Source: an uncultured virus (IMG/VR IMGVR_UViG_3300042559_001930)
Lineage: Duplodnaviria > Heunggongvirae > Uroviricota > Caudoviricetes
Strand: one strand, 5' to 3'
IMG/VR virus record: IMGVR_UViG_3300042559_001930
DNA: 20,649 nt
Positions within the stretch are counted from its first letter, which is position 1. The number at the start of each line of letters is the position of its first letter. The position numbers were made by a program, and so were the translations under genes. Shown piece by piece: positions 1,607 through 16,558 of this stretch. Under the pieces are notes generated by a model. The model was not told the origin of the DNA and made no database searches. It saw nothing but the letters and a program-made list of their open reading frames with translations.

Positions 1607-1636
1607 AAGGACCTGGGATGTCCTTAAACTCATCCA
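1607..1636 (+). ncRNA. Putative cis-regulatory pseudoknot element, copy A (GGAC subtype)
   Basis: AAGGAC-C-TGGGA-T-GTCCTT-AAAC-TC(AT)CCA. P1 is 1607-1612/1620-1625; the loop pairs with 1630-1636 around a 2-nt bulge. Confidence 0.6.
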
Positions 1637-1656
1637 CTCCACCTCAACATAATCTC

Positions 1657-1848
1657 ATGAACAGCACTGAACTACACGCCATGATTGCCCGCATGGACAG
1701 CTATGGCGGATCATTCGTCTCATCTATTGCACAAGCATTGCGCTTTGCTGATCCAACGAATCGGCAGCGTTTGCTTGATGCATTCCCTGACCTCGTCCAA
1801 CAGTATGGACCTGAAGGCCGGTTTGCCAAAGCCAAGCAACTCACATAG
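1657..1848 (+). CDS. Hypothetical phage protein (GGSF...A...AD..N...L..AFP type)
   Basis: ORF 1618-1848; start moved to ATG 1657 because the ATG at 1618 lies inside the repeat element. Confidence 0.75.
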   Translation: MNSTELHAMIARMDSYGGSFVSSIAQALRFADPTNRQRLLDAFPDLVQQYGPEGRFAKAKQLT

Positions 1849-1857
1849 GTGTAACTC

Positions 1858-2106
1858 ATGATTGTTTTGTTAATCGAAGACACATTCATTGATGGCAACG
1901 ATGTCACAGTTACAGCAGTGGTTGACGACATGCGTCTCATCCATCGGTCAACTTACCTTGACCCTGAAGAATATGCTCCTGCGTTATGCAGGGCTAGCTT
2001 CGAACTGGATGAGGGAGAACAAATCCCTCTTGACGAAGATGGCTTCTGCAGTTATCTTACTCACCTCGAGCCTAACTGGGAACTACTTCCAGTAGACAAC
2101 GACTAA
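1858..2106 (+). CDS. Hypothetical acidic protein (82 aa)
   Basis: ATG ORF filling the gap between neighbours. Confidence 0.7.
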   Translation: MIVLLIEDTFIDGNDVTVTAVVDDMRLIHRSTYLDPEEYAPALCRASFELDEGEQIPLDEDGFCSYLTHLEPNWELLPVDND

Positions 2107-2110
2107 CCGT

Positions 2111-2139
2111 ACGTCCTGGACATGACGTTAAACTGTCCA
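2111..2139 (+). ncRNA. Putative cis-regulatory pseudoknot element, copy B (CGTC subtype)
   Basis: ACGTC-C-TGGACA-T-GACGT-TAAAC-TGTCCA; P1 5 bp, P2 6 bp, both perfect. Confidence 0.7.
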
Positions 2140-2161
2140 CTCACTACGAACTCACTACGAA
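2140..2161 (+). repeat. Tandem direct repeat CTCACTACGAA x2 in the leader of the PcfJ-domain gene
   Basis: 2140-2150 and 2151-2161 are identical. Confidence 0.85.
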
Positions 2162-2167
2162 CTTACC

Positions 2168-3913
2168 ATGGAATTCCGTCTTCCTTCTAACCTCCAATCA
2201 GAACTACTGGCTTACGATCCCAAGTTTAAACAACTGCACCAGGAACAGAACCCTAAGGTTACTAAGGCTAAGCCTAAGTTTCCACTTGGCGCTGTATTTG
2301 ATTTGATTCCTGCTGATGTCATCAGACCTGCAGCAGTAGAAGAAGCAGTAACTAGCATCAACTCCAGGGGTATAGAAAATCGTCACCATCGATTTACCAA
2401 GGTGGTAAATATTGCTACACCTACTGCACGTACTATCACACATGCTGTCATCTATCACTATGAGAAAGTGTGGTATGCAGCATGGCTACCACCTAAAGGA
2501 CACGAAGATGACTATGTGTATGGCTATGCTTACGCTTATAAGAATCTAGATTCAGTACGCAAGTCTTTGCTTCATATCTTGATTGAGAACAACAGCAAGC
2601 GTACTGTTGAATACGTTAAGTATGGACGGAGTGAATTCTGTGTTGTACGTCACAATGTAACCAAGCAAGACATTGCTAATGGCATGACTGCAAAGATGTG
2701 GAACCCAGGATATATTTCGTACGGCAAAGGCGTTTACATTAGAGACGCTGCTAATGCTTTTGAATCTACGCTGTCTGAAACAATACCTAAATGGCATGAT
2801 TCACGTGGCTTCTTTGATCGCATTGCTATCAACGACTGGGCCACCATCCTTCAGCTCAAAGGATATGCACGTTATTGGGATCAGTTTGATGATGCAGCAC
2901 AAGCCAAGCGTGATCTACTTCCTTCTGCTGATCTTATCTATAATCTTGCAGCTACTTACCCAAGTAATAACTCATTGCATGAGCATGATACTTATCTTGC
3001 AAGTCGCGTTATTCATATCATTGGCAAACCATACTTCCGCAAATGGATGCAATCACAATGTGATGAGGCCATTGCAATGTTCCAGGATCCAGATAATAAC
3101 TTGTTTTACAAGATAACTCAACCATGGAAACGTATTCACAAGCTAATCAAGTCTATTGATTACGTTAATAAGATTTGGCCTGACTGTCCCATTGATTTCT
3201 ATCAATCACACGTGCAAGAACTATTGGGCTTGCATCTTGACCGTAGGACAACAGACAAAGCAATTACCTGGTTGCGTGCCAACATGCAGCCATCTTCTTT
3301 CTTTAATATGATTGCATTGCATTATGCAAAGCAAGCAGAAGATGTAGCTCTTGCTCATCGGCATACCTGTTACATAGCTACCGAGACTGGAGTCAATACA
3401 TTCTTCATAAGTGAATGGCATGACACCTTGTCAATGCTTGGCGACGTACTAGACCATGGCATGCCTATGCCTACACCAAAGCGTTGGCGTCTCACTGAGT
3501 TCCATGATCATGTGCAAGCAGAAGCATGGAAGATCAAGCATCCAAACGTTAGCCTGCCCCAGGATCTATTCCCTGCTCCTGTCAAGGTAGAGGTGGGTGA
3601 TGAGCGTTGGTCATTCTTCCAGCCTCATGACACACATCAATTGTCAGCATGGGGCCAGGCTGTACGTAACTGCGTCGGCAATGCCAAGGACTATGCTAAT
3701 GGCGTACGCAAGAAGAAACATTTCATTGTGCTTTGTATGGTTGACAACAAGCCTCAGTTCACTGTTCAACTTAAGGTTGACATGGGTATGATGACAGTCA
3801 GCCAGATTGTTGGCATCTCTAACCAAAGGTTGACGGATGAGCAAAAGGATGCCTACACACAAGCCTTTAGCAAGGCGTTGCATTCCCGCAATGATGAGCT
3901 AGAGTCTGCGTAG
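2168..3913 (+). CDS. PcfJ domain-containing protein (581 aa)
   Basis: C-terminal region EFHDHV...QPHDTHQLSAWGQAVRNCVG..YANGVRKKKHFIV...TVQL...VSQIVGISN matches the PcfJ-like pattern (L..EG..M.HCVG.Y...V....I...Q..G..N). Confidence 0.75.
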   Translation: MEFRLPSNLQSELLAYDPKFKQLHQEQNPKVTKAKPKFPLGAVFDLIPADVIRPAAVEEAVTSINSRGIENRHHRFTKVVNIATPTARTITHAVIYHYEKVWYAAWLPPKGHEDDYVYGYAYAYKNLDSVRKSLLHILIENNSKRTVEYVKYGRSEFCVVRHNVTKQDIANGMTAKMWNPGYISYGKGVYIRDAANAFESTLSETIPKWHDSRGFFDRIAINDWATILQLKGYARYWDQFDDAAQAKRDLLPSADLIYNLAATYPSNNSLHEHDTYLASRVIHIIGKPYFRKWMQSQCDEAIAMFQDPDNNLFYKITQPWKRIHKLIKSIDYVNKIWPDCPIDFYQSHVQELLGLHLDRRTTDKAITWLRANMQPSSFFNMIALHYAKQAEDVALAHRHTCYIATETGVNTFFISEWHDTLSMLGDVLDHGMPMPTPKRWRLTEFHDHVQAEAWKIKHPNVSLPQDLFPAPVKVEVGDERWSFFQPHDTHQLSAWGQAVRNCVGNAKDYANGVRKKKHFIVLCMVDNKPQFTVQLKVDMGMMTVSQIVGISNQRLTDEQKDAYTQAFSKALHSRNDELESA

Positions 3914-3925
3914 CCCGCACAGGCT

Positions 3926-3957
3926 TGCCAGCCTTAGCCTCGATACTAGGGCTGGCA
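3926..3957 (+). other. Intergenic stem-loop (12-bp stem with one G-U); possible terminator or processing site
   Basis: TGCCAGCCTTAG-cctcgata-CTAGGGCTGGCA just after the PcfJ stop; no real U-tract follows. Confidence 0.5.
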
Positions 3958-3964
3958 TTCATCC

Positions 3965-4189
3965 ATGACTGAGTACACCGACGACCAACTGCTGGCACAA
4001 GCACTTGCCAATCTTGGTGAGTACATACATACTCATGGTACGCCTGACTATGTATTGATTGATGCAGACGATCCTCGTAACGAGGAAGACTATGACACAT
4101 GGAGTTATGGTACTGAGCCATTACCCCATGACCACACTTGGCAGCATACATCAATTGATGTATGCATAAGTCCAAGTGAGCCCGAGTAG
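3965..4189 (+). CDS. Hypothetical acidic protein (74 aa); last 10 nt overlap the tRNA
   Basis: ATG ORF with protein-like acidic composition. Confidence 0.6.
   Translation: MTEYTDDQLLAQALANLGEYIHTHGTPDYVLIDADDPRNEEDYDTWSYGTEPLPHDHTWQHTSIDVCISPSEPE
4144..4165. repeat. Perfect 22-bp palindrome GCATACATCAATTGATGTATGC
   Basis: Self-reverse-complementary; ends 14 nt upstream of the tRNA. Confidence 0.85.
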
Positions 4190-4255
4190 CCCAGCGGAAG
4201 AGGCAAGCGACTTAAAATCGCTCCAGCGTGAGTTCGAATCTCACCTCGGGTACCA
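4180..4255 (+). tRNA. trnL: tRNA-Leu(TAA) with encoded CCA and a short variable loop
   Basis: Acceptor GCCCGAG/CTCGGGT; D arm GCC...GG...GGC; anticodon arm AGCGA-CTTAAAA-TCGCT; variable loop CCAGC; T arm GTGAG-TTCGAAT-CTCAC; discriminator A then CCA. Confidence 0.93.
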
Positions 4256-4279
4256 AACTACACATTGCACATTTGAATT

Positions 4280-4492
4280 ATGTCAGCTCAAAACAATTAT
4301 CTTGACATCATTGCTGCTTGCATAGGAGATGTTTCAGACTCCATTGATGCAATTGATACAAAAGACATTGTACTTTCAATCAGTGAACTAGCCAATGTCT
4401 TGAAAGAGACTAATAAACTATTGAAAGAAGTAGCTGATAGCAATAAAGCTATTGCTATGAATGCTTATCAATATGTAGCAAACAAAGTTTGA
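4280..4492 (+). CDS. Hypothetical protein (70 aa, coiled-coil-like)
   Basis: AT-rich ATG ORF directly after the tRNA. Confidence 0.65.
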   Translation: MSAQNNYLDIIAACIGDVSDSIDAIDTKDIVLSISELANVLKETNKLLKEVADSNKAIAMNAYQYVANKV

Positions 4493-4555
4493 TTAAACTT
4501 GGGCATCCGCAAGGTATAAGTCCCAAGTATCACCCATCTACTCAACTCAAACACA

Positions 4556-4918
4556 ATGAACATCTTTGCCTGCTTCAAGCACATCATCCCTGAGTTCCAT
4601 GCATACTCAGATGCCGACCAGCGTTACAACATTGGTGCTACCTGGACAGCACAGGATGGTCTCCATGACTACCACAACTTAGAGATCAAGTACGTCCACA
4701 ACTCTGAGCGGCTTGCGCTCCAGGGCGATCCACAGCCTGATGGCAGCTGGCGGTACGTAGCTCCTGATGGTGGCATCCATGTCATGTCAGCAGAGCGTGC
4801 ACGTGCCTTCATGGAGCAGACCCATGCCCATGCCAACATCATGTGCGGCATGCTTGACCGTCTTAAGGAAAACGGAATGCTAGATCAGGTGGTAGACACG
4901 CAGGCCCAAGCAGCGTAG
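4556..4918 (+). CDS. Hypothetical protein (120 aa)
   Basis: ATG after an ACTCAACTCA leader; followed by a terminator-like hairpin. Confidence 0.8.
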   Translation: MNIFACFKHIIPEFHAYSDADQRYNIGATWTAQDGLHDYHNLEIKYVHNSERLALQGDPQPDGSWRYVAPDGGIHVMSAERARAFMEQTHAHANIMCGMLDRLKENGMLDQVVDTQAQAA

Positions 4919-4939
4919 AATTCATCCGGAAATATCTGG

Positions 4940-4968
4940 GACCCCTGCGCAAGCGGGGGTCTTTCTCT
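4940..4968 (+). terminator. Probable intrinsic terminator with a GCAA tetraloop
   Basis: GACCCCTGC-GCAA-GCGGGGGTC followed by TTTCTCT. Confidence 0.65.
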
Positions 4969-5310
4969 ATGAATCAACCCAGTCCAATTGATACTGATCT
5001 CATTGATCAAATTGTTGCACACATACCTGACTGGGCATGGGATCCTGTATGTCAAGTACTTGTGCCTGCAATTGTTGACAACATGACTGGTTTTGTTATT
5101 GAAAAACTAACTGGACAGTATGACAACTTTGATCGAGCAGAGGAAATTCTGTTTGATTATTACAAACCATTGGACAAGAAACATGCTTTAATTGTTGATT
5201 GTTTTAAATTGTTAAGCCCGCATGTAACTGTCGACATGCTTGATGCCCTTAACTTAGATCAACTTAAATCCAACGAAACAAATGAAATGCCATCAGTGTC
5301 AATCAACTAA
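4969..5310 (+). CDS. Hypothetical protein (113 aa)
   Basis: ATG ORF overlapping the next gene. Confidence 0.7.
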   Translation: MNQPSPIDTDLIDQIVAHIPDWAWDPVCQVLVPAIVDNMTGFVIEKLTGQYDNFDRAEEILFDYYKPLDKKHALIVDCFKLLSPHVTVDMLDALNLDQLKSNETNEMPSVSIN

Positions 5311-5620
5311 CACACGTGTCACGTGTACTGATCATCACGAGACATTAACCAAGCGCTACATCCGTTGCTTGGATTGCGGTTGTAAGTTTCGTACTATTGA
5401 AAAGTATGAAGTGTACAAGCGTGGTCCTAAGAAAAGCGGTAAGCTTCCTGATACACAAGGATCTAAGAATGGATTCTCAGTATTGACTGAGCAAAACATC
5501 TTGGATATCCGCAAGTTGAAACAAGATGGCAAAACTAATTTTGCTATCTCAGTTATCTACGGTATCAACCGTGGACACGTTTCAAAAATTGTCAATCGCA
5601 AAGTCTGGACTCACATCTGA
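5282..5620 (+). CDS. Zn-ribbon (NrdR N-terminal / Ogr-Delta-like) plus HTH putative transcription regulator
   Basis: MKCHQCQSTNTRV...RYIRCLDCGCKFRTIE (CxxC...CxxC) followed by GSKNGFSVLTEQNILDIR...ISVIYGINRGHVSKIVNRKVW, an HTH of the kind found at the C-terminus of phage HNH proteins. Confidence 0.7.
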   Translation: MKCHQCQSTNTRVTCTDHHETLTKRYIRCLDCGCKFRTIEKYEVYKRGPKKSGKLPDTQGSKNGFSVLTEQNILDIRKLKQDGKTNFAISVIYGINRGHVSKIVNRKVWTHI

Positions 5621-5916
5621 TGTCAAACAGAACCAATCGAATCTTTCAAGTTGGTGATCGTGTTGCCGAACGTCCCAAGACTCATGGCATGGTTGCAGTA
5701 CGTGCTGAAGCCAAGGAACAAGTAGCTAAGTATCGCAGTCAACGGTACGGAACAGTGGTTGACTTTACTTCCAAGAAGATTAAGTCTGGTGGTTACCAAA
5801 AGTTTCTTGTGATCCAATGGGATCATCTGCAAACACCATGCGAACATGCACGTGGTCGCATCTGTCACCTTGATGAGTTTCCGAAACTCATGCGTGAAAC
5901 AACTGTTGTTTACTGA
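5620..5916 (+). CDS. Hypothetical protein (98 aa; FQVGDRV...GTVV, SH3/KOW-like pattern)
   Basis: TGATG stop/start coupling with the previous gene. Confidence 0.7.
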   Translation: MSNRTNRIFQVGDRVAERPKTHGMVAVRAEAKEQVAKYRSQRYGTVVDFTSKKIKSGGYQKFLVIQWDHLQTPCEHARGRICHLDEFPKLMRETTVVY

Positions 5917-5921
5917 TTACC

Positions 5922-6269
5922 ATGACTGAACACCCGATTACACCGCCGCCTGAGCTGGTAAAGCAGTGGCGCTCTGAGCCCGAATACTCAGACGGTCACC
6001 ACAAGATCACAATGGTAACCATGTCGCAAGATCGCCTAATGGAGATTTGCGAAAAGTCCGCTTTACACGGCGCCGACCAGGAGCTGGAGGCGTGCTGCGT
6101 ATTGATGGACAAATGGGACCTCGGCGGCCCAGACCTGCGTGAATGCCGCCGCCCAAAACCTCCGAGTTTGAAGGAACAGGCACTAGAAACGCTGAAATAT
6201 CCAAAAGATTTTTGGAGTGAAGCTGAGGTGGACACCATTCGTTTAGCACTGGAGCAACTTGATGACTGA
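5922..6269 (+). CDS. Hypothetical phage protein (ITPPPELV.QW...GADQELEAC...RRPKPPSLKEQAL type)
   Basis: Pattern I associate with freshwater cyanophage-like genomes; ATG ORF. Confidence 0.75.
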   Translation: MTEHPITPPPELVKQWRSEPEYSDGHHKITMVTMSQDRLMEICEKSALHGADQELEACCVLMDKWDLGGPDLRECRRPKPPSLKEQALETLKYPKDFWSEAEVDTIRLALEQLDD

Positions 6270-6453
6270 TCTTTCCCCTGCTAGTCAAGCAATCCTTGAT
6301 GCTATTGCTGAATGGGAAGTAGAACCTGATTCGTATTCCCATCAAATTGTTATTGCTACTCTCTATGCATTAGCATCACGCATTAAAGGAGCCGACCATA
6401 TTCGGCAAGACATTTTAGACATTGCCAACGAACTGGAGAACATCAATGGTTAG
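6262..6453 (+). CDS. Hypothetical protein (MTDLSPASQAILDA type)
   Basis: Overlaps the previous stop; ATG at 6262. Confidence 0.7.
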   Translation: MTDLSPASQAILDAIAEWEVEPDSYSHQIVIATLYALASRIKGADHIRQDILDIANELENING

Positions 6454-6721
6454 CTATCTCACCAGGAAGATGACTGATAAAGACTTCTATCTTTCTCAGG
6501 CATCTAGGCCAAGACCAGCTACTGCCTTCAGTCAATACCGTGGTGTAAGCCGAGGTAACAAAGGTATGTACAGGGCAATGCTGACCTTCAAAGGGAAGCG
6601 CTACTACCTTGGTAATCATGTCAATGAGATTGATGCAGCACGTGCCTATAACAAAGCAGCGCTTGCAATCATTGGTGACTATGCTTTACTAAACGAAATT
6701 CCAAGTGATGACAATGTCTAA
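6446..6721 (+). CDS. AP2-domain DNA-binding protein (stand-alone)
   Basis: SQYRGVS...YRAMLTFKGKRYYLG...EIDAARAYNKAALAIIGDYALLN is a typical AP2 domain; start may be 6446 or 6470. Confidence 0.8.
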   Translation: MVSYLTRKMTDKDFYLSQASRPRPATAFSQYRGVSRGNKGMYRAMLTFKGKRYYLGNHVNEIDAARAYNKAALAIIGDYALLNEIPSDDNV

Positions 6722-7349
6722 TGCCAAGCTGGTTTGGGTAACTCCCAATGCAGAAGAAATGATTGTGAAGATGGCACGCGTAAGTGCGCCATCAAACCAA
6801 GGCAACATGGATACAGCGCCACGCCTGTTGAAGTACTTGATTAATCACAAGCATCATTCACCATTTGAGATGGCCAATCTTTGTGTTGAAATCGAAACAA
6901 CTCGTGGTATTTCAGCGCAGATCCTGAGGCACCGTTCATTCTCGTTCCAAGAATTCAGTCAGCGTTATGCAGACGTAGGTGAACTAGGCTCATCTGTTAT
7001 CCCACATCTGCGCAGGCAAGACCTCAAGAATCGTCAGAACAGTATTGACGATCTGTCTCCTGATGTAATTGCTGGGTACTACCGACGCATTGGCCATCTG
7101 TTTGAAGATGCAGAACATCTGTACCGCGAGATGGTTAGCAGTGGTGTTGCCAAGGAATGTGCACGTGCTGTACTTCCTATTGCAACCAAGACAAAGATGT
7201 ATATGAACGGAACGCTCCGTTCATGGATCCACTATCTGCAACTGCGTTGTGATGTAAGTACTCAGCTTGAGCATCGGCAAATTGCAGAAGAGATTAAAGA
7301 GATTTTCTGCGAACAATTCCCCATCATTGGCGAGGCTGTATTCGAATGA
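6714..7349 (+). CDS. thyX: FAD-dependent thymidylate synthase
   Basis: H.SPFE, QILRHRSFSFQEFSQRY (RHRx7S motif), G.AKECAR.VLP, LRSWIHYLQLR, Q.EHR; alternative starts at 6705 and 6708. Confidence 0.96.
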   Translation: MSNAKLVWVTPNAEEMIVKMARVSAPSNQGNMDTAPRLLKYLINHKHHSPFEMANLCVEIETTRGISAQILRHRSFSFQEFSQRYADVGELGSSVIPHLRRQDLKNRQNSIDDLSPDVIAGYYRRIGHLFEDAEHLYREMVSSGVAKECARAVLPIATKTKMYMNGTLRSWIHYLQLRCDVSTQLEHRQIAEEIKEIFCEQFPIIGEAVFE

Positions 7350-7675
7350 CTGACAAACCTTCTAAGAAATGGATTCGTGATTACGACTATGCAATGTTTG
7401 AAGTGGAATACGATCAAACATTAAATGAGTATATAGATTACATAAAAGAATTAATCAATGAAGGATGGGAAGGTATTGAAATGGTGCCCCGGGGATATGA
7501 CAATTGTTATTATCCATTCCTTTATAAAACACGTATGGAAACAGATGTTGAATTCCAAGCTCGTTTAGAACTTGCAGAAAAAGAACAGAAAAAGAAAATT
7601 AAAGCTGCGGAAAGGAAACGTAGACAGTACGAAAAACTTAAAAAGGAATTTGAACCCAATGGAATACCCAATTAA
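7346..7675 (+). CDS. Hypothetical protein (109 aa, charged C-terminal helix)
   Basis: ATGA overlap with thyX; AT-rich. Confidence 0.7.
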   Translation: MTDKPSKKWIRDYDYAMFEVEYDQTLNEYIDYIKELINEGWEGIEMVPRGYDNCYYPFLYKTRMETDVEFQARLELAEKEQKKKIKAAERKRRQYEKLKKEFEPNGIPN

Positions 7676-7883
7676 AGAGCTTGCCATTCAACACTGGGAA
7701 GCTCTTGTACTAGGTGGATTGGATGGACGTGAGTACACAGACTCAATGCTCTACATCCGCAATGCCTTGAACTTTGTGCCAGATGATTTGATGTCTGGTG
7801 TGGTTAAGGTGGTGGATGGTGAGCACTCTCTCGTACTGACCTGCCCGCCGTCCACCGGCGACGGAATGCCTAGTGACTCCTGA
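7659..7883 (+). CDS. Hypothetical protein (74 aa)
   Basis: ORF 7572-7883; the ATG at 7659 (MEYPIKEL) minimises overlap with the previous gene. Confidence 0.55.
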   Translation: MEYPIKELAIQHWEALVLGGLDGREYTDSMLYIRNALNFVPDDLMSGVVKVVDGEHSLVLTCPPSTGDGMPSDS

Positions 7884-7905
7884 AAAACTACGAACAGATC
7901 GTAGC

Positions 7906-7951
7906 ACCAAATCCCCTGCGCTGCAGGGGACCTGGTCAAATATATTTTTTT
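7906..7951 (+). terminator. Possible intrinsic terminator
   Basis: TCCCCTGC-gct-GCAGGGGA core, extended by ACCA/TGGT; T-run at 7945-7951, somewhat distant from the stem. Confidence 0.5.
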
Positions 7952-7986
7952 ATGGCTACAATGACAATGAATTAACTTTCACGTAA

Positions 7987-9131: not shown

Positions 9132-9160
9132 ACGTCCTAAGCAAGACGTTAAACTGCTTG
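9132..9160 (+). ncRNA. Putative cis-regulatory pseudoknot element, copy C (CGTC subtype)
   Basis: ACGTC-C-TAAGCA-A-GACGT-TAAAC-TGCTTG; followed by a CCC-GCAA-GGG hairpin. Confidence 0.7.
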
Positions 9161-9199
9161 CCCCGCAAGGGATCTGGTAATATTCCTGTACGGGAATAT

Positions 9200-9227
9200 G
9201 GACCTGAGATGTCCCTAAACTCATTCA
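9200..9227 (+). ncRNA. Putative cis-regulatory pseudoknot element, copy D (GGAC subtype)
   Basis: GGAC-C-TGAGA-T-GTCC-CTAAAC-TC(AT)TCA; TGA/TCA here covaries with TGG/CCA in copy A. Confidence 0.6.
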
Positions 9228-9259
9228 TTAGTCCCGCTTATCAATCACATTCAACACCA

Positions 9260-10027
9260 ATGCAACTCCTCAAATTTTCCAACGGCAACGGCAAGCTCAA
9301 GAACCGTCTGATCTTTTCGCTGCCTGCTGGCCATTCATGTCCACACGCTGGAGTCTGCAAGACATTTGCTGACCGTGTCACCGGACTCATCACTGACCTG
9401 CCCCAGTACACGGGCACAGAAGCAGATGAGTTCCGTTGCTTTGCTGCCATAGCAGAGGTGCGGCCCAACGTTCGTGCGGCACGCTGGCACAACTGGGATC
9501 TCATCCGTGAGGTCATCCATTCCAATGGCAACCAAGCCGTGCTGCTTCGTGACTTGATCGACTTGTCGCTCACCATGCAAGCACCTAAGGATCTGGTGCG
9601 TGTCCATGAGTCTGGTGACTTCTGGACTGAGAACTACATGCGGGCTTGGCTGATGGCTGCTGCCCAGCGACCTAAGCAAACGTTCTATGCCTACACCAAG
9701 TCTCTTGGTATGTGGTACAACCTGCATGACCAGATCCCATCCAACTTCTATCTCACTGCATCTTGCGGTGGGACACTCGACTACTTGATCCCCAAGTACA
9801 GCGATGTGTTCCAGCGGGTTGCTTACGTTGTGTACACAGAAAAGCAAGCGGCAGAGCTGGGTCTTGAGATTGATCACGACGATAGCCACTGCCTTGGTGA
9901 CAAACCGTTTGCACTACTGGTACACGGGAGCCAGCGTGCTGGATCTGAAGCCATGCAAGCTGTCACACAACGCAAGAAAGATGGTGGCTTCGTTGGCTAT
10001 GGTAAAACATTCCAAAAAGAATCTTAA
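9260..10027 (+). CDS. Gene product 88 (GP88)-like phage protein
   Basis: N.KL...FSLPAGHSCP...C...C.A, RVHESGDF and FYAYTK motifs; start moved from 9158 to ATG 9260 because the upstream part is the structured leader. Confidence 0.75.
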   Translation: MQLLKFSNGNGKLKNRLIFSLPAGHSCPHAGVCKTFADRVTGLITDLPQYTGTEADEFRCFAAIAEVRPNVRAARWHNWDLIREVIHSNGNQAVLLRDLIDLSLTMQAPKDLVRVHESGDFWTENYMRAWLMAAAQRPKQTFYAYTKSLGMWYNLHDQIPSNFYLTASCGGTLDYLIPKYSDVFQRVAYVVYTEKQAAELGLEIDHDDSHCLGDKPFALLVHGSQRAGSEAMQAVTQRKKDGGFVGYGKTFQKES

Positions 10028-10032
10028 GATAC

Positions 10033-10060
10033 TTGCATAACTAAATAAATCGGTTAACAT
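10033..10060 (+). promoter_or_regulatory. Possible sigma70-type promoter for the DNA polymerase operon
   Basis: TTGCAT-16 nt-TAACAT in an AT-rich intergenic region; overlaps the hairpin CGGTTA/TGACCG. Confidence 0.35.
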
Positions 10061-10083
10061 CTGACCGTTCTTGTTTTGTTCAG

Positions 10084-10317
10084 ATGAGCTACGTCGTTGC
10101 TACATGGAAGGATGGGATTCCTCACGCCATAACTGCGTGTAACCAATCCAATTCATTTCAATTAATTCCGTTAGACTCTGACGTAGCTCTTAACAAGATC
10201 TTCTCTCATCCGTATCGTGCGGGTGCACAGCAAGTCTTGACGTGGATTAACAAGAATGACCAAGACCTTTCTCGCGAAGAACTCTCAATTCAAGATGAAG
10301 CCCGATTCCGTAAATGA
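10084..10317 (+). CDS. Hypothetical protein (77 aa)
   Basis: ATG ORF upstream of, and overlapping, the polymerase start. Confidence 0.65.
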   Translation: MSYVVATWKDGIPHAITACNQSNSFQLIPLDSDVALNKIFSHPYRAGAQQVLTWINKNDQDLSREELSIQDEARFRK

Positions 10318-12121
10318 ACGTTGGCTGATCTTTGACATTGAGACTGACAATCTTTATGACAAGGTCACGCTGACCCATTGCATTGTCATTCATGACATCA
10401 CAAGCCAACAAACTTTTACTTATGGGCCTGATCGTATTGCTGCTGCTCTTGATCATCTGGCAACCGCTGATGTACTCATTGGCCACAACGTAATTTTTTA
10501 TGACCTACCCGTATTGGTAAAGTTGTATCCCGAATTCAAACACAACGCACGTGTCATAGACACGCTCATCTGCACACGACTCATCTGGCCCAAGGAACTT
10601 CTCTATGACCTTGACATCGAACAATATCCGCAGGTTCCAAAGAACTTGCGGGGTTCAGCTTCGCTCAAAGCCTGGGGCTGGCGACTTGCTGACCACAAGA
10701 TTGACTTCAAAGATTTTAAAGAGTATTCCCAAGAGATGTTGGACTACTGTGTCCAGGACGTTCAAGTCACAAAGAAACTCTGGGAACATACTGTCAAGCA
10801 GAACTACCAACCAACTGCGCTCAAACTTGAGCATGACTTTGCCTTGGCGATTAACAAACAAATTAGAGCAGGTATTCCTTTCGATGTGGATGCTGCTATT
10901 GATTTGGTGGATGATCTCCGAGCAAAAGAAACAGAACTCGTTCAACATCTGAAAGAAATTTTTCCAGCCATCAAACATGAAACGGTCTTTATCCCGAAGG
11001 TCAACAACACTAAACGTGGGTATGTCAAGGGTGAGCCGTTTATTAAAGTCACGTACGAAGAATTTAATCCTGGATCTCGTTCGCAAATTGTTGAACGACT
11101 ACAACAAAAGTACAATTGGATTCCAGAGAAAACTACTGAGAAAGGTAATCCGACTCTTGATGACGATATACTCGGAGCGCTTCCGTACCCAGAAGCTAAA
11201 CCGTTAGCTGAATACATGCTGATCAAGAAACGTCTTGGTCAGATTGCGGATGGTAACAATGCTTGGCTCAAGCTTGTTAACAATGAAAACGGACGCATGC
11301 ACGGTGATGTGATCACCAATGGATGTATTACAGGCCGTTGTGCGCACCGATCTCCAAACATGGGTCAAGTACCAGCAGGTTATTCACCTTATGGAAAAGA
11401 ATGCCGTTCGTTATTTCATGCTCCTGATGGTTGGGATCTTATTGGGATCGATGCTAAAGCTTTGGAGCTTAGGTGCCTTGCCGGTTATCTAGCCATTTGG
11501 GATAACGGTGAGTATGCAGAACTTGTAACAGATCCAACCGGAGACATCCATACCTATAACCAACAACAGTTTGGTGTGGAGACCAGGGACATTAGTAAGC
11601 GTTTGTTGTATGGAATGCTGTATGGATGCGGATCTGTTAAGGCAGGTACAATCATTGACCCGAATGAAAAAGATGAATTTGTTCTGCGCAAACTAGGAAG
11701 TACTGCAATCAATTCATTTATGGATGGCGTGCCAGCCTTAAAGAAATTGAAACGTGAGATTGAAAATAACATTGCAACACGCAACTATTTATATGGATTG
11801 GATAAACGTACGTTGCATTGTCGTTCTGCATTTAAGGGATTGAATGTTTTATTACAATCAGCTGGTGCAATCATCATGAAGCAAGTTGTTGTAACCATTC
11901 ACAACAACATTGAACAAAACCTTGGCTTGGTGCACGGCAAGGATTGGGAACAAGTCTTGATGGTCCACGATGAGATTCAACTTGTTTGTAATCCCGCGTA
12001 CACAAAGCAGATCAGAGAGCAGGCTATGATTGCCTTCCCAGCTGCTGGAGACTTCTTTAATTTTCGTTGCAAGATTGAAGGTGACTCCCGGATTGGATAC
12101 AGTTGGGCAGATACTCACTGA
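10295..12121 (+). CDS. polA: Family A DNA polymerase with 3'-5' exonuclease (T7 gp5-like)
   Basis: ExoI FDIETD, ExoII GHN..YD.P, ExoIII YC.QDV, FNPGSR.Q, TGR, motif A DAKALELR, motif B RDISKRLLYGMLYG, motif C VHDEIQ; start is 10295 or 10256. Confidence 0.96.
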   Translation: MKPDSVNERWLIFDIETDNLYDKVTLTHCIVIHDITSQQTFTYGPDRIAAALDHLATADVLIGHNVIFYDLPVLVKLYPEFKHNARVIDTLICTRLIWPKELLYDLDIEQYPQVPKNLRGSASLKAWGWRLADHKIDFKDFKEYSQEMLDYCVQDVQVTKKLWEHTVKQNYQPTALKLEHDFALAINKQIRAGIPFDVDAAIDLVDDLRAKETELVQHLKEIFPAIKHETVFIPKVNNTKRGYVKGEPFIKVTYEEFNPGSRSQIVERLQQKYNWIPEKTTEKGNPTLDDDILGALPYPEAKPLAEYMLIKKRLGQIADGNNAWLKLVNNENGRMHGDVITNGCITGRCAHRSPNMGQVPAGYSPYGKECRSLFHAPDGWDLIGIDAKALELRCLAGYLAIWDNGEYAELVTDPTGDIHTYNQQQFGVETRDISKRLLYGMLYGCGSVKAGTIIDPNEKDEFVLRKLGSTAINSFMDGVPALKKLKREIENNIATRNYLYGLDKRTLHCRSAFKGLNVLLQSAGAIIMKQVVVTIHNNIEQNLGLVHGKDWEQVLMVHDEIQLVCNPAYTKQIREQAMIAFPAAGDFFNFRCKIEGDSRIGYSWADTH

Positions 12122-12135
12122 GTATTTGTTTAATC

Positions 12136-12162
12136 CGTCCCAGGTATGACGTTAAACTGCCT
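12136..12162 (+). ncRNA. Putative cis-regulatory pseudoknot element, copy E (CGTC subtype)
   Basis: CGTC-C-CAGGTA-T-GACG-TTAAAC-TGCCT; P2 is AGGTA/TGCCT. Confidence 0.7.
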
Positions 12163-12184
12163 TAACACCTAACTTCTCAAGGTA

Positions 12185-13000
12185 ATGAATCACGTCTGCG
12201 TTTGTGCTCAGCTGAATGAAACCCCACGCGAGGTTTACATCAGCGCATCCTCTACTGCCATGCGCTGTATGGTATTGCTTCCTCCCGTAGGAAACAAAGC
12301 ACCAACTCCAATTCAACTCAATGTCTATGGTAAAACTGCTGAGCGCTTTTCCAGGCTGAAAGAAAAATCTTTGGTGTTTATTTATGGCGCCAAGATTCGT
12401 TATGATCTTGAATCTAAATCTCATTCACTGCATGGTGGAATTATTCACCAGGTCAATGATGAGTTTCCAATCATCAATGATGTAATCCTTTCTGGCCGCT
12501 GCGTTAAAGACATTGACCGTGAGGATGCACGTGCATTCAAGACCACGGCAACTGGTCTGATGATCTGCAATCAAACCTTGTCGGTTAGCACTGGCCGCAA
12601 CCAAGCAGATCTCTTTAACTTCTATGCGATCAACTCGCATGAAGATAAGTTGAACAATGCGGAACTGTTGGTAAACTTCACGCGTAAAGGCGTGGGTCTT
12701 ACCATTAAGGGTCGGCTTGTTACTGATGCATGGACTGATCAGACCACAAATGAAAAGCGTATTCAAACCAAAATTCAATTGGTAAACATGACCCTTGCAC
12801 CCAAGGGAAATGCAAGCGATCAACCAAGAGAGATCAAAGCACAGACTACGGTAAGTGCACCGGAGAATGTGTCTACTCTTTGGGGTGGCCGCACGCTAGA
12901 AGAATCAACTGATCCTTGGAACCAAGCTTCTGGTGGTGGTCTGCCTGAACTTCCTGGGCAATATGGTTCTGCTCCTGACCTTGAAGAAATTCCTTTTTGA
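12185..13000 (+). CDS. ssb: Single-stranded DNA-binding protein with two tandem OB folds
   Basis: Two SSB-like repeats (MNHVCVCAQL...YGKTAE...V.I.G and INDVILSGR...AE...RKG....KGRL.TDAW.D), a low-complexity linker and the acidic tail DLEEIPF. Confidence 0.8.
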   Translation: MNHVCVCAQLNETPREVYISASSTAMRCMVLLPPVGNKAPTPIQLNVYGKTAERFSRLKEKSLVFIYGAKIRYDLESKSHSLHGGIIHQVNDEFPIINDVILSGRCVKDIDREDARAFKTTATGLMICNQTLSVSTGRNQADLFNFYAINSHEDKLNNAELLVNFTRKGVGLTIKGRLVTDAWTDQTTNEKRIQTKIQLVNMTLAPKGNASDQPREIKAQTTVSAPENVSTLWGGRTLEESTDPWNQASGGGLPELPGQYGSAPDLEEIPF

Positions 13001-13005
13001 TTACC

Positions 13006-13233
13006 ATGACAATTCAAATTGATTGCTTGGATCCTGAGCCTATGTGCTTGGAAGATGCAATGGCCTACGAGTTCTTCATGGACAACGTAAGCATTTGCTT
13101 TCAAGACAAAGAGCAAGATGGAGAAGATCTTGCAACTTCAATAGCAGTACTTGCCAAGTCTGCTTATTTGATTGCAGAGATTTTTACTGAAGCCCGTAAC
13201 CAACACATTGAAAAAACTAATGGCACAGTCTGA
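13006..13233 (+). CDS. Hypothetical protein
   Basis: ORF 12997-13233; first ATG at 13006. Confidence 0.65.
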   Translation: MTIQIDCLDPEPMCLEDAMAYEFFMDNVSICFQDKEQDGEDLATSIAVLAKSAYLIAEIFTEARNQHIEKTNGTV

Positions 13234-13459
13234 TCAACGGATGAAGTTTACTTTGGAAGAAGAAGAGTACACCATCGTATTCCAAAGCGATGGTGTTACC
13301 ACCGATGAGATTCTTGAGCACTTCATTATGTTTATGAAGGGCTGTGGGTACCATGAAGACAGTATTTATTCATCGCTTCAGGAAACCATTGATGAGCGTG
13401 AAGCTTTGTCAAAGGCTCGTGCTCTTTATGACATGGATGCCTGCAAGGACCTAGTATGA
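13220..13459 (+). CDS. Hypothetical phage protein (EILEHF..FMKGCGY type)
   Basis: ATG 13220 overlaps the previous gene; the motif is common in small phage proteins. Confidence 0.7.
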   Translation: MAQSDQRMKFTLEEEEYTIVFQSDGVTTDEILEHFIMFMKGCGYHEDSIYSSLQETIDEREALSKARALYDMDACKDLV

Positions 13460-13464
13460 GGACC

Positions 13465-13491
13465 CGCCTCGGGATGGCGTTAAAAGCGTCC
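13465..13491 (+). ncRNA. Degenerate copy F of the pseudoknot element
   Basis: CGCC-TCGGGAT-GGCG-TTAAAA-GCGTCC. P1 covaries (CGCC/GGCG); P2 is only GGA/TCC. Same position relative to the stop and ATG as the other copies. Confidence 0.4.
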
Positions 13492-13513
13492 ACGCCCAAC
13501 CCCTGAACACACC

Positions 13514-14530
13514 ATGACTGTTTCCATGACTACCAAGAAAACTTCTGCGCTTGCAACACGTGGCCTCGATTCTTTCAAACTTTTTCAATCTAAAGAGTTT
13601 GTCTCAGGATACCAAAACCTCGTTACGATTCAGCCCCTCAACAAATCCAAGACACGAGGTTGGTTCGTGCGGAACTCAGACCTTGACACTTGCGGATGGA
13701 GTGCCACTGAAAATCAATTTGCTAAGGGTTCAGTTATCTGGAACTACAAACAAACTTTTGGTATGGCTCCCAACACTTCAATTGAAGAGGGACTCAATTT
13801 TGTTGAGCCTCGCATTCAAATCCTTCTACGTTCTCCCCTCATGGTTGAGGAAACCACAGGGATGAGGCAGACGATTGGTACCTTTGACGACCCAGCTGTC
13901 AAAGAATTGTTTGAAGCTGACAAGATTGCATCTGATCTTGCCAACAGCAAAGGTGAGATGTACAAGCGTAAGTACAGTGTACGTACAAAGTACCTGGTGT
14001 ACATCCTTACGGAAGACAATAAGCGTGCTCACAAGATCCCTATGGTGTTGACACTGAAGGGATTGAATGGTACCGATGTCAGCGACAAGGTTAAGCTGTA
14101 CGAAAAAGAAATGTCCAAGTGCTTGAGCAAGGCACTGGATGCTGAAGTACCCCTGAGCTTCAATGAAAAGTTCTACGCAACTACCGTATTTGCTCCAGTA
14201 CTTGCCAATGAGATGCGCGGAGCCAACAACGTTGAGATCTGCGCAATTGAATCTTTTGACATCCCTGGTTACAGCAACCAAGAGGAAGCAGTCGAATCAT
14301 TGAATCGCATGTCGATTCCTGATGAAGACCGCGAATCTACTTGGAAGTTCCAGGAACTCTTCAGTGACTATATAAATCAACATGCACGTCAGGATGCTGA
14401 CAAGCTTGGTGGTGCTTATGGAATCAAGCCGGGTGTTGAGATCCTTCCTGTGTCTCGCACCATGGATGCTGTGGAGGTTAAAGCACTACCTTCTCGTGAT
14501 GCACTTACGGGTGAGGACACGTCACTCTGA
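13514..14530 (+). CDS. DUF5895-like protein (cyanobacterial/cyanophage family of unknown function)
   Basis: GWFV...L...GW, PRIQILLRSPL and KYLVYIL..DN...H.IP..LT.KG resemble my recollection of DUF5895; the CDS is certain, the family is tentative. Confidence 0.6.
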   Translation: MTVSMTTKKTSALATRGLDSFKLFQSKEFVSGYQNLVTIQPLNKSKTRGWFVRNSDLDTCGWSATENQFAKGSVIWNYKQTFGMAPNTSIEEGLNFVEPRIQILLRSPLMVEETTGMRQTIGTFDDPAVKELFEADKIASDLANSKGEMYKRKYSVRTKYLVYILTEDNKRAHKIPMVLTLKGLNGTDVSDKVKLYEKEMSKCLSKALDAEVPLSFNEKFYATTVFAPVLANEMRGANNVEICAIESFDIPGYSNQEEAVESLNRMSIPDEDRESTWKFQELFSDYINQHARQDADKLGGAYGIKPGVEILPVSRTMDAVEVKALPSRDALTGEDTSL

Positions 14531-14782
14531 TTTGACTTGAGGATTAGACAAGTCTTCTTCATTAACAGCAACGTTGTTAAAGATGAACATGTCTTGTACT
14601 AATCCCCTAATCACACCTTGACGTTGAGTGGCGATCTGCGCAAGCAAGGTCGCCATTTCTTTTAAGGTACTTACTGAATTGCAATCTTCAATTGATCGTT
14701 TGATTTTTTCTAGCCAAAACTTATCATCAAGCGTTGGTTCAATTTGAAATTTAGTTAATGGTACGTATTTGATTTCTTCCAT
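14522..14782 (-). CDS. Hypothetical protein (86 aa); the only complete minus-strand gene
   Basis: Fills the 14531-14861 gap; helical, protein-like sequence; 9-nt convergent overlap with the previous gene. Confidence 0.75.
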   Translation of the reverse strand: MEEIKYVPLTKFQIEPTLDDKFWLEKIKRSIEDCNSVSTLKEMATLLAQIATQRQGVIRGLVQDMFIFNNVAVNEEDLSNPQVKSE

Positions 14783-14861
14783 GGTTTATTCAGTTGGCAC
14801 CCATAGGTTACATCTATAGTAAACCCTAGATCAAAACTTCAAAATGTATTAACAATCACAA

Positions 14862-15065
14862 ATGAAACCTGAAGAAAAAGCTGCAATCAAGGACGGTGCC
14901 GCAACTGCTGCCATAGCAGGAGTGGTTGCCTTGGCCATTGGTAGTCCTGTATGCTGGGCTGGCGTTCTTTACGGAACGTATCGGATGGCACGCTTGGCCT
15001 ACAAGCGGACCAAGTATCGTGATACACTTCACGACAGGGACCAGGACGCTGATCTCTTCATCTAA
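14862..15065 (+). CDS. Small putative membrane protein
   Basis: Hydrophobic stretch AATAAIAGVVALAIGSPVCWAGVLYG followed by basic residues. Confidence 0.7.
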   Translation: MKPEEKAAIKDGAATAAIAGVVALAIGSPVCWAGVLYGTYRMARLAYKRTKYRDTLHDRDQDADLFI

Positions 15066-15079
15066 CTCAACTCAGACTC

Positions 15080-16021
15080 ATGCAACTCCAAACCGAACTC
15101 AACTCAGCCCAAGCCCTCATCTATTCACGGTCCAACATTCGTCGTGCGTATGCAGACTTTGATGACACCGAAATCTCTGGCATTTATCTGCGAGATGACA
15201 ATTGTGTTGTGGTGCGTTGTGATGGTAGTGAGCAGGCTTACGAACGGACGTTGATCAAGACAGCGTTCCAGCAGTATACTCACCGACTCAAAGACTTCTT
15301 TTCTTACCTTGGTCCTAATTACCGTGGCCCTAGTGTATGGCATAACAATGCTTACGTTATGTTTAAGGGCTGGAACTATTCACACGCACTCGGACACCTG
15401 ACTTCCAATGCCAAGCTCCAACAACACTGGGCAGACAAGTTCATTCATCTGTCAGACCCCAGCAAAGTCGTTGCCCTCCTCCAGAATGACCAGACGGATC
15501 TGGGACATCTGGTTGCGCCGGATGGGCTTCGGAGTCCGACTCGGCCAATTGACTTGGAGTCTGAGTTGGAGGAAAACGCCTCCGGTGTTCAGGCCAGCAC
15601 TCCTGAACCTTACTGCTCATGTGGGTCCTTTCAGCGTCAACTTCTTAATGTTTCGTTATTCCAACAAGAGATTGAAGGATTCAAACCCTGGTGCATCCAC
15701 CTGACTTGGTTCCATAAATACCGTGAGCTGCTGTGCAAGCGTACTGAAGTGCGTAATGCATTGCCCAGTGGTACGCCTGACAAGTGTGTGGCATGGTGGT
15801 ATGCCCCGCCCCAGGACCATATCAGTGAAGGCAAGTTTGTATTGCTGCACACCAAGTCTGGTGCTCAGGCTCCGCTGACTCATTGGCGTACGTACAAACC
15901 AAAGGAAGTGTTTAACCAAGGGCATGCCTGGGATTTGTTTTTCAATATGATGGAGGCAGGCTATGTACCATTCCCTGGTACTGCATTGCCACAACTGCAG
16001 TCTGCTGTCAAAAAGAAATGA
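15080..16021 (+). CDS. SWIM-type zinc finger-containing protein (313 aa)
   Basis: YCSCGSFQRQ...KPWCIHL fits CxC-x(n)-CxH; ACTCAACTCA leader. Confidence 0.7.
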   Translation: MQLQTELNSAQALIYSRSNIRRAYADFDDTEISGIYLRDDNCVVVRCDGSEQAYERTLIKTAFQQYTHRLKDFFSYLGPNYRGPSVWHNNAYVMFKGWNYSHALGHLTSNAKLQQHWADKFIHLSDPSKVVALLQNDQTDLGHLVAPDGLRSPTRPIDLESELEENASGVQASTPEPYCSCGSFQRQLLNVSLFQQEIEGFKPWCIHLTWFHKYRELLCKRTEVRNALPSGTPDKCVAWWYAPPQDHISEGKFVLLHTKSGAQAPLTHWRTYKPKEVFNQGHAWDLFFNMMEAGYVPFPGTALPQLQSAVKKK

Positions 16022-16209
16022 GCTTTCTCAGTTGGGTTGAGAAGTTACAAGTGGAGGTAATTAACCAAGAAGATGGTGGTTGCATCATCCGCATTGAGTG
16101 GGATGATGCAGATCCAGATCTTGAATACTGGACAAACCTTGGTGAAGAAGGACAAAAATCCTTTATCATCGAATCACTAACCAATGCTCTTGACTGCTAT
16201 GTCGATTGA
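16018..16209 (+). CDS. Hypothetical acidic protein (63 aa)
   Basis: ATGA coupling with the previous gene. Confidence 0.7.
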   Translation: MSFLSWVEKLQVEVINQEDGGCIIRIEWDDADPDLEYWTNLGEEGQKSFIIESLTNALDCYVD

Positions 16210-16525
16210 CACTTACGGCCTTGACGAAAATCGCTACGTTGAGATCTTTGAAGATAAAGCCAGGTTTCTTTTCAGGACAATGCATGCTCTTATTCGAGTA
16301 TCCCTGGAACAAAATGTAAACCTTGATGGGTGGCCTCACGACATCATCTGGAAGATGTACGAGTCTGTTACGTACAATGCCAGTGATGATGCTCGTGTCA
16401 TCCAGAAGACTGAAGCCCCTGAAAAAGTTGAAGAACGTTCGTATGATCCAATCACAATGTATAGTCGCCAAGACTTAATGGATGAAATAAAACTTATTAA
16501 AGAACTGTTGATCAAGGAAGTTTGA
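16199..16525 (+). CDS. Hypothetical protein
   Basis: ORF 16184-16525; likely start MSIDTY at 16199. Confidence 0.7.
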   Translation: MSIDTYGLDENRYVEIFEDKARFLFRTMHALIRVSLEQNVNLDGWPHDIIWKMYESVTYNASDDARVIQKTEAPEKVEERSYDPITMYSRQDLMDEIKLIKELLIKEV

Positions 16526-16529
16526 TCCA

Positions 16530-16558
16530 ACGTCCTGGTCATGACGTAAAACTGACTA
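16530..16558 (+). ncRNA. Putative cis-regulatory pseudoknot element, copy G (CGTC subtype)
   Basis: ACGTC-C-TGGTCA-T-GACGT-AAAAC-TGACTA. Confidence 0.7.

Follow-up and report, generated by a model that had tools for sequence, protein, structure and literature searches.

To our knowledge, exoribonuclease-resistant RNAs (xrRNAs) have so far come from eukaryotic RNA viruses only. Coremin (xrRNA-C) is a short motif of RNA viruses, among them BNYVV and the cucumoviruses, that stops the nuclease Xrn1 and works protein-free in the plant-virus case. It is printed as GUCCGAAGACGUUAAACUAC in PMC10520033. Mutagenesis of its spacer found AAA, C and U to be essential and the two U ahead of them to be replaceable, the C-G pair closing the loop was essential and could not be flipped, and the first loop base had to be C or U (PMC6546385, PMC10321173). 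A second hairpin directly after the spacer is required for the Xrn1 stop (PMC6546385), and a coremin with a Watson-Crick pseudoknot (xrRNA-WCC) is also Xrn1-resistant (PMC10321173). Coremin also makes scanning ribosomes stall and promotes -1 frameshifting (PMC10520033, PMC10321173), and in vitro a flaviviral xrRNA is able to stop bacterial RNase J1 (PMC5760640). Here we describe a dispersed RNA element in a stretch of 20,649 nt from an uncultured virus of the Caudoviricetes (IMG/VR record IMGVR_UViG_3300042559_001930), below called the window. The element is a 28-nt H-type RNA pseudoknot on the gene strand, and both of its stems covary. The virus is a lake cyanophage, in which the copies lie shortly upstream of replication genes. 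The element family is real and widespread, and its coremin-like core has already been described in eukaryotic RNA viruses.

A gene-strand pseudoknot with two covarying stems

Each copy measures 28 nt once its first stem is trimmed to 4 bp. In 5′ to 3′ order it is made up of the first stem P1 (4 bp, NGWC/GWCN), a one-base first loop (L1) that is C, the 5′ strand of the second stem P2, one base that is mostly U, the closing strand P1′, UUAAAC, and the closing strand P2′. The 5′ strand of P2 has 6 nt (5 in the copies at 1607 and 9200), and P2′ has 6 nt, or 7 with a 2-nt bulge. The six-base segment after P1′ ends in AAAC across copies. The length of L1 is not strictly fixed, since some relatives carry CU or CUU at the site upstream of the SSB gene (L014-L024, L059, L063, L069 and L071; first loop 2-3 nt, P2 shifted).

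Relatives of the window were fetched via the SSB protein and comprise 76 viral loci (1.295 Mb in total) that resemble Synechococcus phage S-EIVl. From 127 unique copies in these relatives (alignment A2) we made a covariance model, R1, with P2 entered as a nested stem. R1 matched six clear copies in the window, all on the + strand (E 5.4e−9 to 3e−5); the next best match in the window (E 0.28) is on the − strand. Across the 76 loci it gave 316 matches at E ≤ 0.01, and all 300 among the matches listed lie on the gene strand. A descriptor scan gave the same picture, with 7 matches on the + strand of the window and 0 on the − strand, and 288 matches on the gene strand of the 76 loci vs 17 on the opposite strand, including up to 9 copies in 20 kb of one locus. 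The descriptor match at 8925, inside an open reading frame (ORF) and with P1 TGAG/TTTA, is due to chance. A generic pseudoknot descriptor without the AAAC anchor returned 384 + strand matches in the window, which is noise, and the pattern GTYMMTAAACT with one mismatch allowed was uninformative (6 matches vs 2.2 expected).

The copies in A2 were chosen for pairing, and the percentage paired is therefore biased; the two tests anchored on one stem alone are blind to the other stem and unbiased. When only P1 and AAAC were required, at least 5 of 6 P2 pairs formed in 228/253 instances, vs 8/461 on the opposite strand. The observed mean was 5.40 pairs, vs 4.45 ± 0.04 when P2 partners were shuffled among instances. 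When only P2 and AAAC were required, a full P1 (4/4) was present in 231/430 instances vs 1/119 on the opposite strand. The P1 types were CGUC/GACG (200), GGAC/GUCC (37), GGUC/GACC (8) and UGUC/GACA (8). Within A2 the covariation score was 0.473, vs 0.203 ± 0.010 after shuffling (0/500 shuffles reach 0.473), and 6/10 pairs have changes on both sides. Pairing in A2 is 93.9% and drops to 19-50% when the partner is slid by 1-3 columns. P2 positions 2-5 hold 44 G-U pairs vs 16 A-C pairs, an excess that points to folding of the sense strand. The orthologues of the SSB site alone vary too little for a proof of the fold; double changes number 11 at one pair, and the share of paired cells is 85.5% vs 84.0% when shuffled. 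In that alignment MAFFT misplaced 13 rows with a longer L1.

A preliminary description of the window had listed seven + strand stretches and taken them for a selected single-stranded fold rather than an operator in double-stranded DNA. All seven read as claimed, R1 recovers six of them, and the covariation of both stems, the G-U excess and the gene-strand position of all 300 listed R1 matches bear out the fold. The stem variants given there are correct, the dash written in P2′ of the copies at 1607 and 9200 standing for a 2-nt bulge (TC[AT]CCA and TC[AT]TCA). The preliminary description also placed the start of six of the seven copies 3-14 nt past a stop codon, and this too holds; the exception is the copy at 9200, which lies 73 nt from any upstream stop.

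One claim did not survive. The stretch at 13465, which R1 did not match at E ≤ 10, had been called degenerate, and it is a conserved variant instead of a decayed copy. It is kept nearly unchanged in eight close relatives (L030, L009, L007, L008, L073, L046, L043 and L047), and L046 combines a compensatory change in P1 (CGCC/GGCG to TGCC/GGCA) with one in P2. Other relatives have a canonical copy at the same DUF5895 site, 20 nt ahead of the gene. A second background (L058 and L044; L028, copies of the CUGGUA class) shows the paired switch of the bases after AAA, C-U to A-G, as well. The two bases concerned are two that coremin mutagenesis found essential.

The position of the element between genes is strongly constrained. 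The distance from its end to the next ATG is 19-22 nt in 171/259 family hits. A genuine distance below 18 nt was seen once (12 nt); another three hits have a value of −1, with the ATG overlapping the element end. By downstream gene, the modal distance is 19-21 nt for SSB, DUF5895, and the 39-aa and 65-aa ORFs; the PcfJ-like gene (28 nt) and the GP88-like gene (33 nt) have longer ones. On the other side, 5 nt is the commonest gap between the upstream stop and the inner P1 (90/259), and it is rarely shorter. The leaders between knot and start codon contain 4.2% G vs 21.7% for the loci overall, and 88% of them are predicted to be unstructured vs 36% of random segments. No window gene has a clear Shine-Dalgarno sequence, and window genes without a knot carry similar CA-rich leaders. 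The knot is linked to the downstream gene while the upstream gene varies. At least 10 upstream ORF families precede the SSB copy and at least 14 the GP88-like copy, with the same downstream gene in each case, and at the SSB copy the 5′ flank is not conserved and the leader is partly conserved. At least 22 downstream gene families are found within the S-EIVl-like lineage, the commonest being the 39-aa ORF (66 hits).

Comparison with coremin and Rfam families

The phage element and coremin have the core GUCC..GACGUUAAACU in common. In both, a short first hairpin (hp1 in coremin, P1 in the phage) is closed by C-G, the first loop base is a pyrimidine (C in the phage), the spacer is A-rich, the pseudoknot joins loop to spacer, and tandem copies occur. 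Coremin hp1 has 3-4 bp of the form GUC/GAC with a closing C-G, to which the phage P1, NGWC/GWCN, conforms. The closing C-G and the third G-C are identical in 127/127 unique copies, though the filter demanded both; before filtering, every core with at least 8 occurrences has both pairs. The phage copies carry G-UUAAAC-U, in agreement with the coremin spacer GUUAAACUAC. Among orthologues picked by position alone, AAA and U never vary and C is kept in at least 90%, and the two bases ahead of AAAC vary among phage copies. Phage conservation thus agrees with coremin mutagenesis, because the same positions are fixed or free.

The two elements differ in how the pseudoknot is formed. The final AC of the coremin spacer is replaced in the phage by the variable P2′ strand, and some copies read UUAAACUAC. 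The phage P2 is a 6-bp Watson-Crick stem with an 8-nt loop, whereas the coremin contact is non-canonical and that of xrRNA-WCC has 3 bp. As in xrRNA-WCC, loop 1 and the spacer end pair in antiparallel fashion, here over 5-6 bp, four pairs of which show compensatory changes. L1, usually a single base, is C in the phage and G in xrRNA-WCC. The 6-bp P2 may replace both the short loop-spacer contact of coremin and its stacked second hairpin. The settings also differ: the phage knot lies between the genes of a DNA phage, ahead of start codons, and coremin lies in the 3′ untranslated regions (UTRs) of RNA viruses. The opposing nuclease is Xrn1 for coremin and, putatively, RNase J or RNase E for the phage knot. 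A stretch at 104-166 of the window, inside a possible ORF (30-233), has a layout that recalls the two-hairpin coremin: a hairpin, UAUUAAAC, then a terminator-like hairpin with a T-run (138-155). It is not matched by R1.

Bacterial 5′ mRNA stabilisers such as the ompA 5′ hairpin and the Bacillus 5′ stabilisers likewise consist of a compact 5′ structure, an unstructured leader and a start codon, and so does the translational operator of T4 gene 32, whose structure is a pseudoknot. None of these has sequence likeness to the phage knot, which, unlike them, is dispersed ahead of many genes and across phyla.

The preliminary description did not recognise the element as a named family, and no Rfam family reached its threshold for it. 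In the whole window at E ≤ 10 only the tRNA was found; matches to microRNA, small nucleolar RNA and similar families at E 0.5-10 were dismissed as chance. The claim that the element is undescribed holds in this respect, but it fails in another, given the relative in eukaryotic RNA viruses and a part of GP20-b with the same build. RF01106 (SBWMV1_UPD-PKb), a 3′ UTR pseudoknot of soil-borne wheat mosaic virus, a plant RNA virus, is the only Rfam model that aligned to the best window copy (14.9 bits, 2112-2138). The likeness covers CG..CGUUAAACUGU.C: the hairpin and UUAAAC are shared, and so is a strand that complements the loop. The first stem of RF01106 has 3 bp, and scores of 14.9-15.7 bits vs a gathering score of 38 mean that the element is not a member.

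GP20-b (RF03003) was reportedly described by Weinberg in 2017 as a candidate cis-regulator ahead of phage GP20 genes. Its first half is built like the phage knot: a GUC..GGCG hairpin, then UAAAA, then a strand that pairs with the loop. An Enterococcus knot together with the hairpin that follows it aligns to GP20-b at full length (25.5 bits vs a gathering score of 36.2), and the UAAAA-G form resembles the window variant at 13465. GP20-b differs in being a two-module motif of 62 positions that is tied to one gene family, and it matched no window copy at E ≤ 10. The main text of PMC5737381 does not discuss GP20. A literature search found no paper on a phage or bacterial xrRNA; the supplements of PMC5737381 and PMC10690425 may hold related alignments.

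A putative roadblock to 5′-to-3′ decay

Four roles had been suggested for the element at the outset: riboswitch, exonuclease roadblock, protein operator and translation enhancer. Of these, the roadblock agrees best with the data, since the Xrn1-resistant coremin has the same conserved core. Starting from the observed fold, strand, covariation, spacing, linkage to the downstream gene and sequence match to coremin, we tentatively favour a knot that is never unfolded by ribosomes and protects the downstream cistron from 5′-to-3′ decay. Both the block to a bacterial nuclease and selection for it we infer. The element would be transcribed within the rightward multi-gene messages of the phage. Starting 3-5 nt past a stop codon and ending ~19-22 nt ahead of a start codon, it would not be unfolded by ribosomes. 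Judging in part from ribosome footprints and frameshift spacers, it would be packed as tightly as possible between a terminating and an initiating ribosome, neither of which would have to open it. The small ribosomal subunit would land on the G-poor unstructured leader. After a cut further upstream in the message, the knot would halt RNase J, the 5′-to-3′ exoribonuclease of cyanobacteria, or the 5′-end-dependent entry of RNase E. The downstream cistron would then survive with a defined, protected 5′ end, and in the window the protected cistrons would be the SSB, GP88-like, DUF5895, PcfJ-like, 63-aa and 39-aa genes.

It is also possible, and we put this forward with slightly more reserve, that a true xrRNA on the GUCC..GACGUUAAACU core, a prokaryotic counterpart of the viral ones, is present in DNA phages across many bacterial phyla, where it would cut multi-gene messages into separately stabilised units. 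If so, a core shared with plant, fungal and insect RNA viruses would be a very old viral device, or else a striking convergence on a minimal fold for mechanical blocking. A knot that stops RNase J or blocks ribosomes would explain per-gene levels in long transcripts without Shine-Dalgarno sequences or obvious internal promoters, provide a very small, transferable stabiliser or insulator of mRNA for use in cyanobacteria and Firmicutes, and link the RNA biology of phages and plant viruses. This is directly testable, because S-EIVl is cultured, has a known Synechococcus host and carries seven copies.

Several results weigh against a roadblock. Both spacing rules are equally expected from genome compaction together with ribosome non-occlusion, whatever the function. 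Nested folding energies are unremarkable (z −0.04 to −0.99, from a tool that cannot score pseudoknots), so the case for the fold rests on covariation and not on energy; the minimum-energy structure alternates between P1 and P2 among copies. The phage loop, C-UGNNCA-U, departs from the coremin loop rule YGAD/YGNNAD in that its second base is U, not G, and its last base is C in 48/288 matches, which is disallowed by the D of coremin. A hairpin directly after P2′, corresponding to the second hairpin (hp2) of coremin, is present in 26/213 unique contexts vs 79/213 random ones. Copy 3 (9132) has no gene start close downstream. At loci L141 and L143 the knot directly precedes a hammerhead ribozyme, and after self-cleavage the upstream fragment would end, on its 3′ side, in the knot. 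RNase J (TIGR00649) was not found in one of five element-bearing bacterial genomes, a metagenome-assembled genome (MAG) of Bacteroidota. In favour of a roadblock, besides the Xrn1 resistance of xrRNA-WCC and the RNase J1 block by a flaviviral xrRNA, RNase J was above the cut-off in three of the five and reached a sub-cut-off 320 bits in a fourth. The 24 listed sequencing runs that contain the phage are lake-water or biofilm metagenomes, none of them RNA.

The knot could instead act on ribosomes, either by preventing re-initiation by terminating or sliding ribosomes, which would make the translation of each downstream gene independent, or as a standby platform that helps the 30S subunit to load on the leader (e.g., via protein S1). 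This would suit the tight lower bound of ~18-19 nt to the start codon, the G-poor unstructured leaders, the lack of a clear Shine-Dalgarno sequence at any window gene and the fact that the element remains with the downstream gene. The gap of 3-5 nt after the stop resembles the spacer of frameshift signals. Coremin itself causes stalled scanning ribosomes and −1 frameshifting (PMC10520033, PMC10321173). However, the knot is not required for initiation, because knot-free window genes share these CA-rich leaders. No start codon follows copy 3, and elsewhere the knot precedes ribozymes or follows terminators. Such a role in translation we consider unlikely. Frameshifting or readthrough at copy 1 was rejected, the next ORF being in a different frame with its own ATG. 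A somewhat lower probability goes to a knot that belongs to the upstream message and shields its 3′ end from 3′-to-5′ exonucleases after cleavage in the unstructured leader, or by a neighbouring ribozyme, or at an RNase P site. The starts close behind stop codons (six of seven copies, commonest gap 5 nt), copy 3 at a gene end with no close downstream gene, and the type III hammerheads directly after the knot in L141 and L143 would all be explained in this way. What argues against such a 3′ cap is that the downstream gene is kept while the upstream ORF family varies in the S-EIVl-like lineage, that the leader is conserved and the 5′ flank is not, and that copy 4 is far from any upstream stop.

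An operator for an RNA-binding protein of phage or host is improbable, even though one copy precedes the SSB gene in every relative examined and SSB autoregulation as in T4 gene 32 comes to mind. Knot plus unstructured leader resembles the build of the gene 32 operator, which PMC10690425 also mentions. The knot is, however, shared by phages and bacteria across many phyla, beside unrelated genes, and precedes at least 22 gene families in the S-EIVl-like lineage alone, and its conserved bases are those that coremin needs to stall Xrn1 without a protein. A signal at the DNA level is more doubtful still. TAAACT does resemble a −10 hexamer, with the element spanning ~−29 to −2 and leaders of ~20 nt, and at some bacterial loci the element directly follows a terminator; a single-stranded DNA hairpin is the other form of this proposal. 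A duplex promoter does not need two interleaved covarying stems, and G-T is tolerated far above A-C on the sense strand. A sigma-70 scan called 0/6 clear copies and found 19 sites vs 35.2 ± 5.6 after shuffling, and the same core acts as RNA in plant viruses. We give least credence to a ligand-sensing riboswitch. The small pseudoknot, like preQ1-I in this respect, the invariant unpaired C and AAAC and the wide phylogenetic spread speak for it, but an expression platform is absent: P2′ ends at least 18 nt before the ATG, the leaders are unstructured, the start region is never paired and no terminator follows. Up to 9 copies per 20 kb, and 8 canonical copies plus 1 variant on the phage contig ahead of unrelated genes, also speak against sensing, and no Rfam riboswitch matched. 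The roadblock thus remains the reading that we prefer, tentatively, for the cyanophage copies.

Spread of the element and gene content of the window

The preliminary description proposed a phage RNA regulon. The element is not private to this phage, since the fold recurs in many contigs of unrelated phages and bacteria. A scan of prokaryotes (one genome per species, an 18-base pattern with P2 left unspecified) found 75 stretches in very diverse bacteria and MAGs, and 54/75 form at least 5/6 P2 pairs. Carriers include Enterococcus, Erysipelotrichaceae, Selenomonadaceae, Saccharibacteria, Phytoplasma, Anaerolineae and Alphaproteobacteria. The same pattern gave at least 135 stretches in IMG/VR, and among the matches listed at least 5/6 pairs form in 113/127 unique ones. 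Some bacterial copies lie directly 3′ of terminators. The Firmicutes CAG:95 contig of L141 and L143 has four knots, each with a type III hammerhead directly 3′; three of these ribozymes score 48.4-50.7 bits, around the gathering score of 48.5, and one scores 42. At L151 a RAGATH-1 hammerhead lies 600 nt away, and its 5′ hairpin plus UAUAAAAU resembles the first half of the knot. In Erysipelotrichaceae and Bacilli MAGs (L087, L088, L104, L106, L122, L126 and L133) the knot sits inside an outer helix; the 3′ strand of this helix takes in the Shine-Dalgarno region of a gene starting MK(Y/F/H)Y(T/I)L. This context is more riboswitch-like, unlike that of the cyanophage. In L089 (a Bradymonadales MAG) and L118 (a Calditrichia MAG) the knot is flanked by identical direct repeats of ~36-37 nt, as judged by eye. 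These two copies appear to be spacers of CRISPR arrays, and would target carriers of the element.

All long ORFs of the window are on the + strand (Table 1). Other products include a thymidylate synthase, two HNH endonucleases and a virion protein. Among the relatives just one has a name, Synechococcus phage S-EIVl of an arctic lake, with 82% identity across 13525-14448. Its gene order matches the window, on the S-EIVl minus strand. Its seven copies of the element all fall within 25.9-43.0 kb, in the replication arm and on the gene strand, and none lies in 45-79 kb. A 7.9-kb contig (G001:C440) is identical to window positions 12250-20000 and belongs to the nearest genome, a MAG of 3.2 Mb and 460 contigs, G001. 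We rejected G001 as the host and did not use it as such, because it has no phycobilisome gene and no RNase J above the cut-off. The phage piece in G001 is most likely a binning error.

Table 1. Copies of the pseudoknot, their leaders and neighbouring genes in the window (positions count from its first letter; scores are for model R1).
Feature	Position	Strand	Stems and loops	Score	Context
Copy 1	1607..1636	+	P1 (AA)GGAC/GTCC(TT); L1 C; P2 UGGGA with P2′ UC[AU]CCA (2-nt bulge); L3 AAAC after P1′ UU	32.5 bits, E 1.1e−5	starts 3 nt past stop 1601-1603
Leader of copy 1	1637..1656	+			20 nt, G-free, up to ATG 1657
63-aa ORF	1657-1848	+			
Copy 2	2111..2139	+	P1 ACGUC/GACGU; L1 C; P2 UGGACA/UGUCCA; L2 U; L3 UAAAC	46.1 bits, E 5.4e−9	stop 2104-2106; 28 nt ahead of PcfJ-like ATG
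PcfJ-like gene (581 aa)	ATG at 2168	+			
tRNA-Leu (anticodon UAA)	4180-4255				overlaps end of ORF 3965-4189
Copy 3	9132..9160	+	P2 UAAGCA/UGCUUG	42.1 bits, E 4.9e−8	after stop 9124-9126; hairpins downstream
Copy 4	9200..9227	+	P1 GGAC/GUCC; P2 UGAGA, P2′ UC[AU]UCA (bulged class)	30.6 bits, E 3e−5	32 nt ahead of GP88-like ATG
GP88-like gene	ATG at 9260	+			
Family A DNA polymerase	10256-12121	+			
Copy 5	12136..12163	+	P1 CGUC/GACG; P2 (C)AGGUA/UGCCU(U)	41.8 bits	stop 12119-12121; 21 nt ahead of SSB ATG (12185)
SSB leader	12164..12184	+			21 nt; Shine-Dalgarno sequence absent
SSB gene	12185-13000	+			
Variant copy	13465..13497	+	P1 CGCC/GGCG; first loop base U; weaker P2; UUAAAA then G, replacing UUAAAC-U		stop 13457-13459; ahead of DUF5895 gene
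DUF5895 gene	13514-14530	+			
Copy 6	16530..16558	+	P1 ACGUC/GACGU; P2 UGGUCA/UGACUA; L3 AAAAC	43.8 bits, E 2e−8	stop 16523-16525; 19 nt ahead of ATG of 39-aa ORF
39-aa hydrophobic ORF	ATG at 16578	+			

At the SSB site the element is present in 63/63 unique rows (74 rows examined). A viral contig of 32.6 kb, G002, ends in window positions 1-9052 and extends the sequence upstream by 23.6 kb. In the resulting 44-kb composite an anchored scan found zero copies in the first 22 kb of G002 and two extra ones 1.6 and 1.2 kb upstream of the window, which bring the total on this viral contig to 8 canonical copies and 1 variant. New stem variants in the two upstream copies are GGUC/GACC for P1 and UGAGUA/UACUCA for P2. 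The stretch that separates tandem copies 3 and 4 (9161-9199) holds a pair of small hairpins and the hexamer TAATAT, and the P2′ strand of copy 3 has an alternative pairing with the first of these hairpins (CUUGC/GCAAG). This short stretch may be a transcript end plus a transcript start between two knots.

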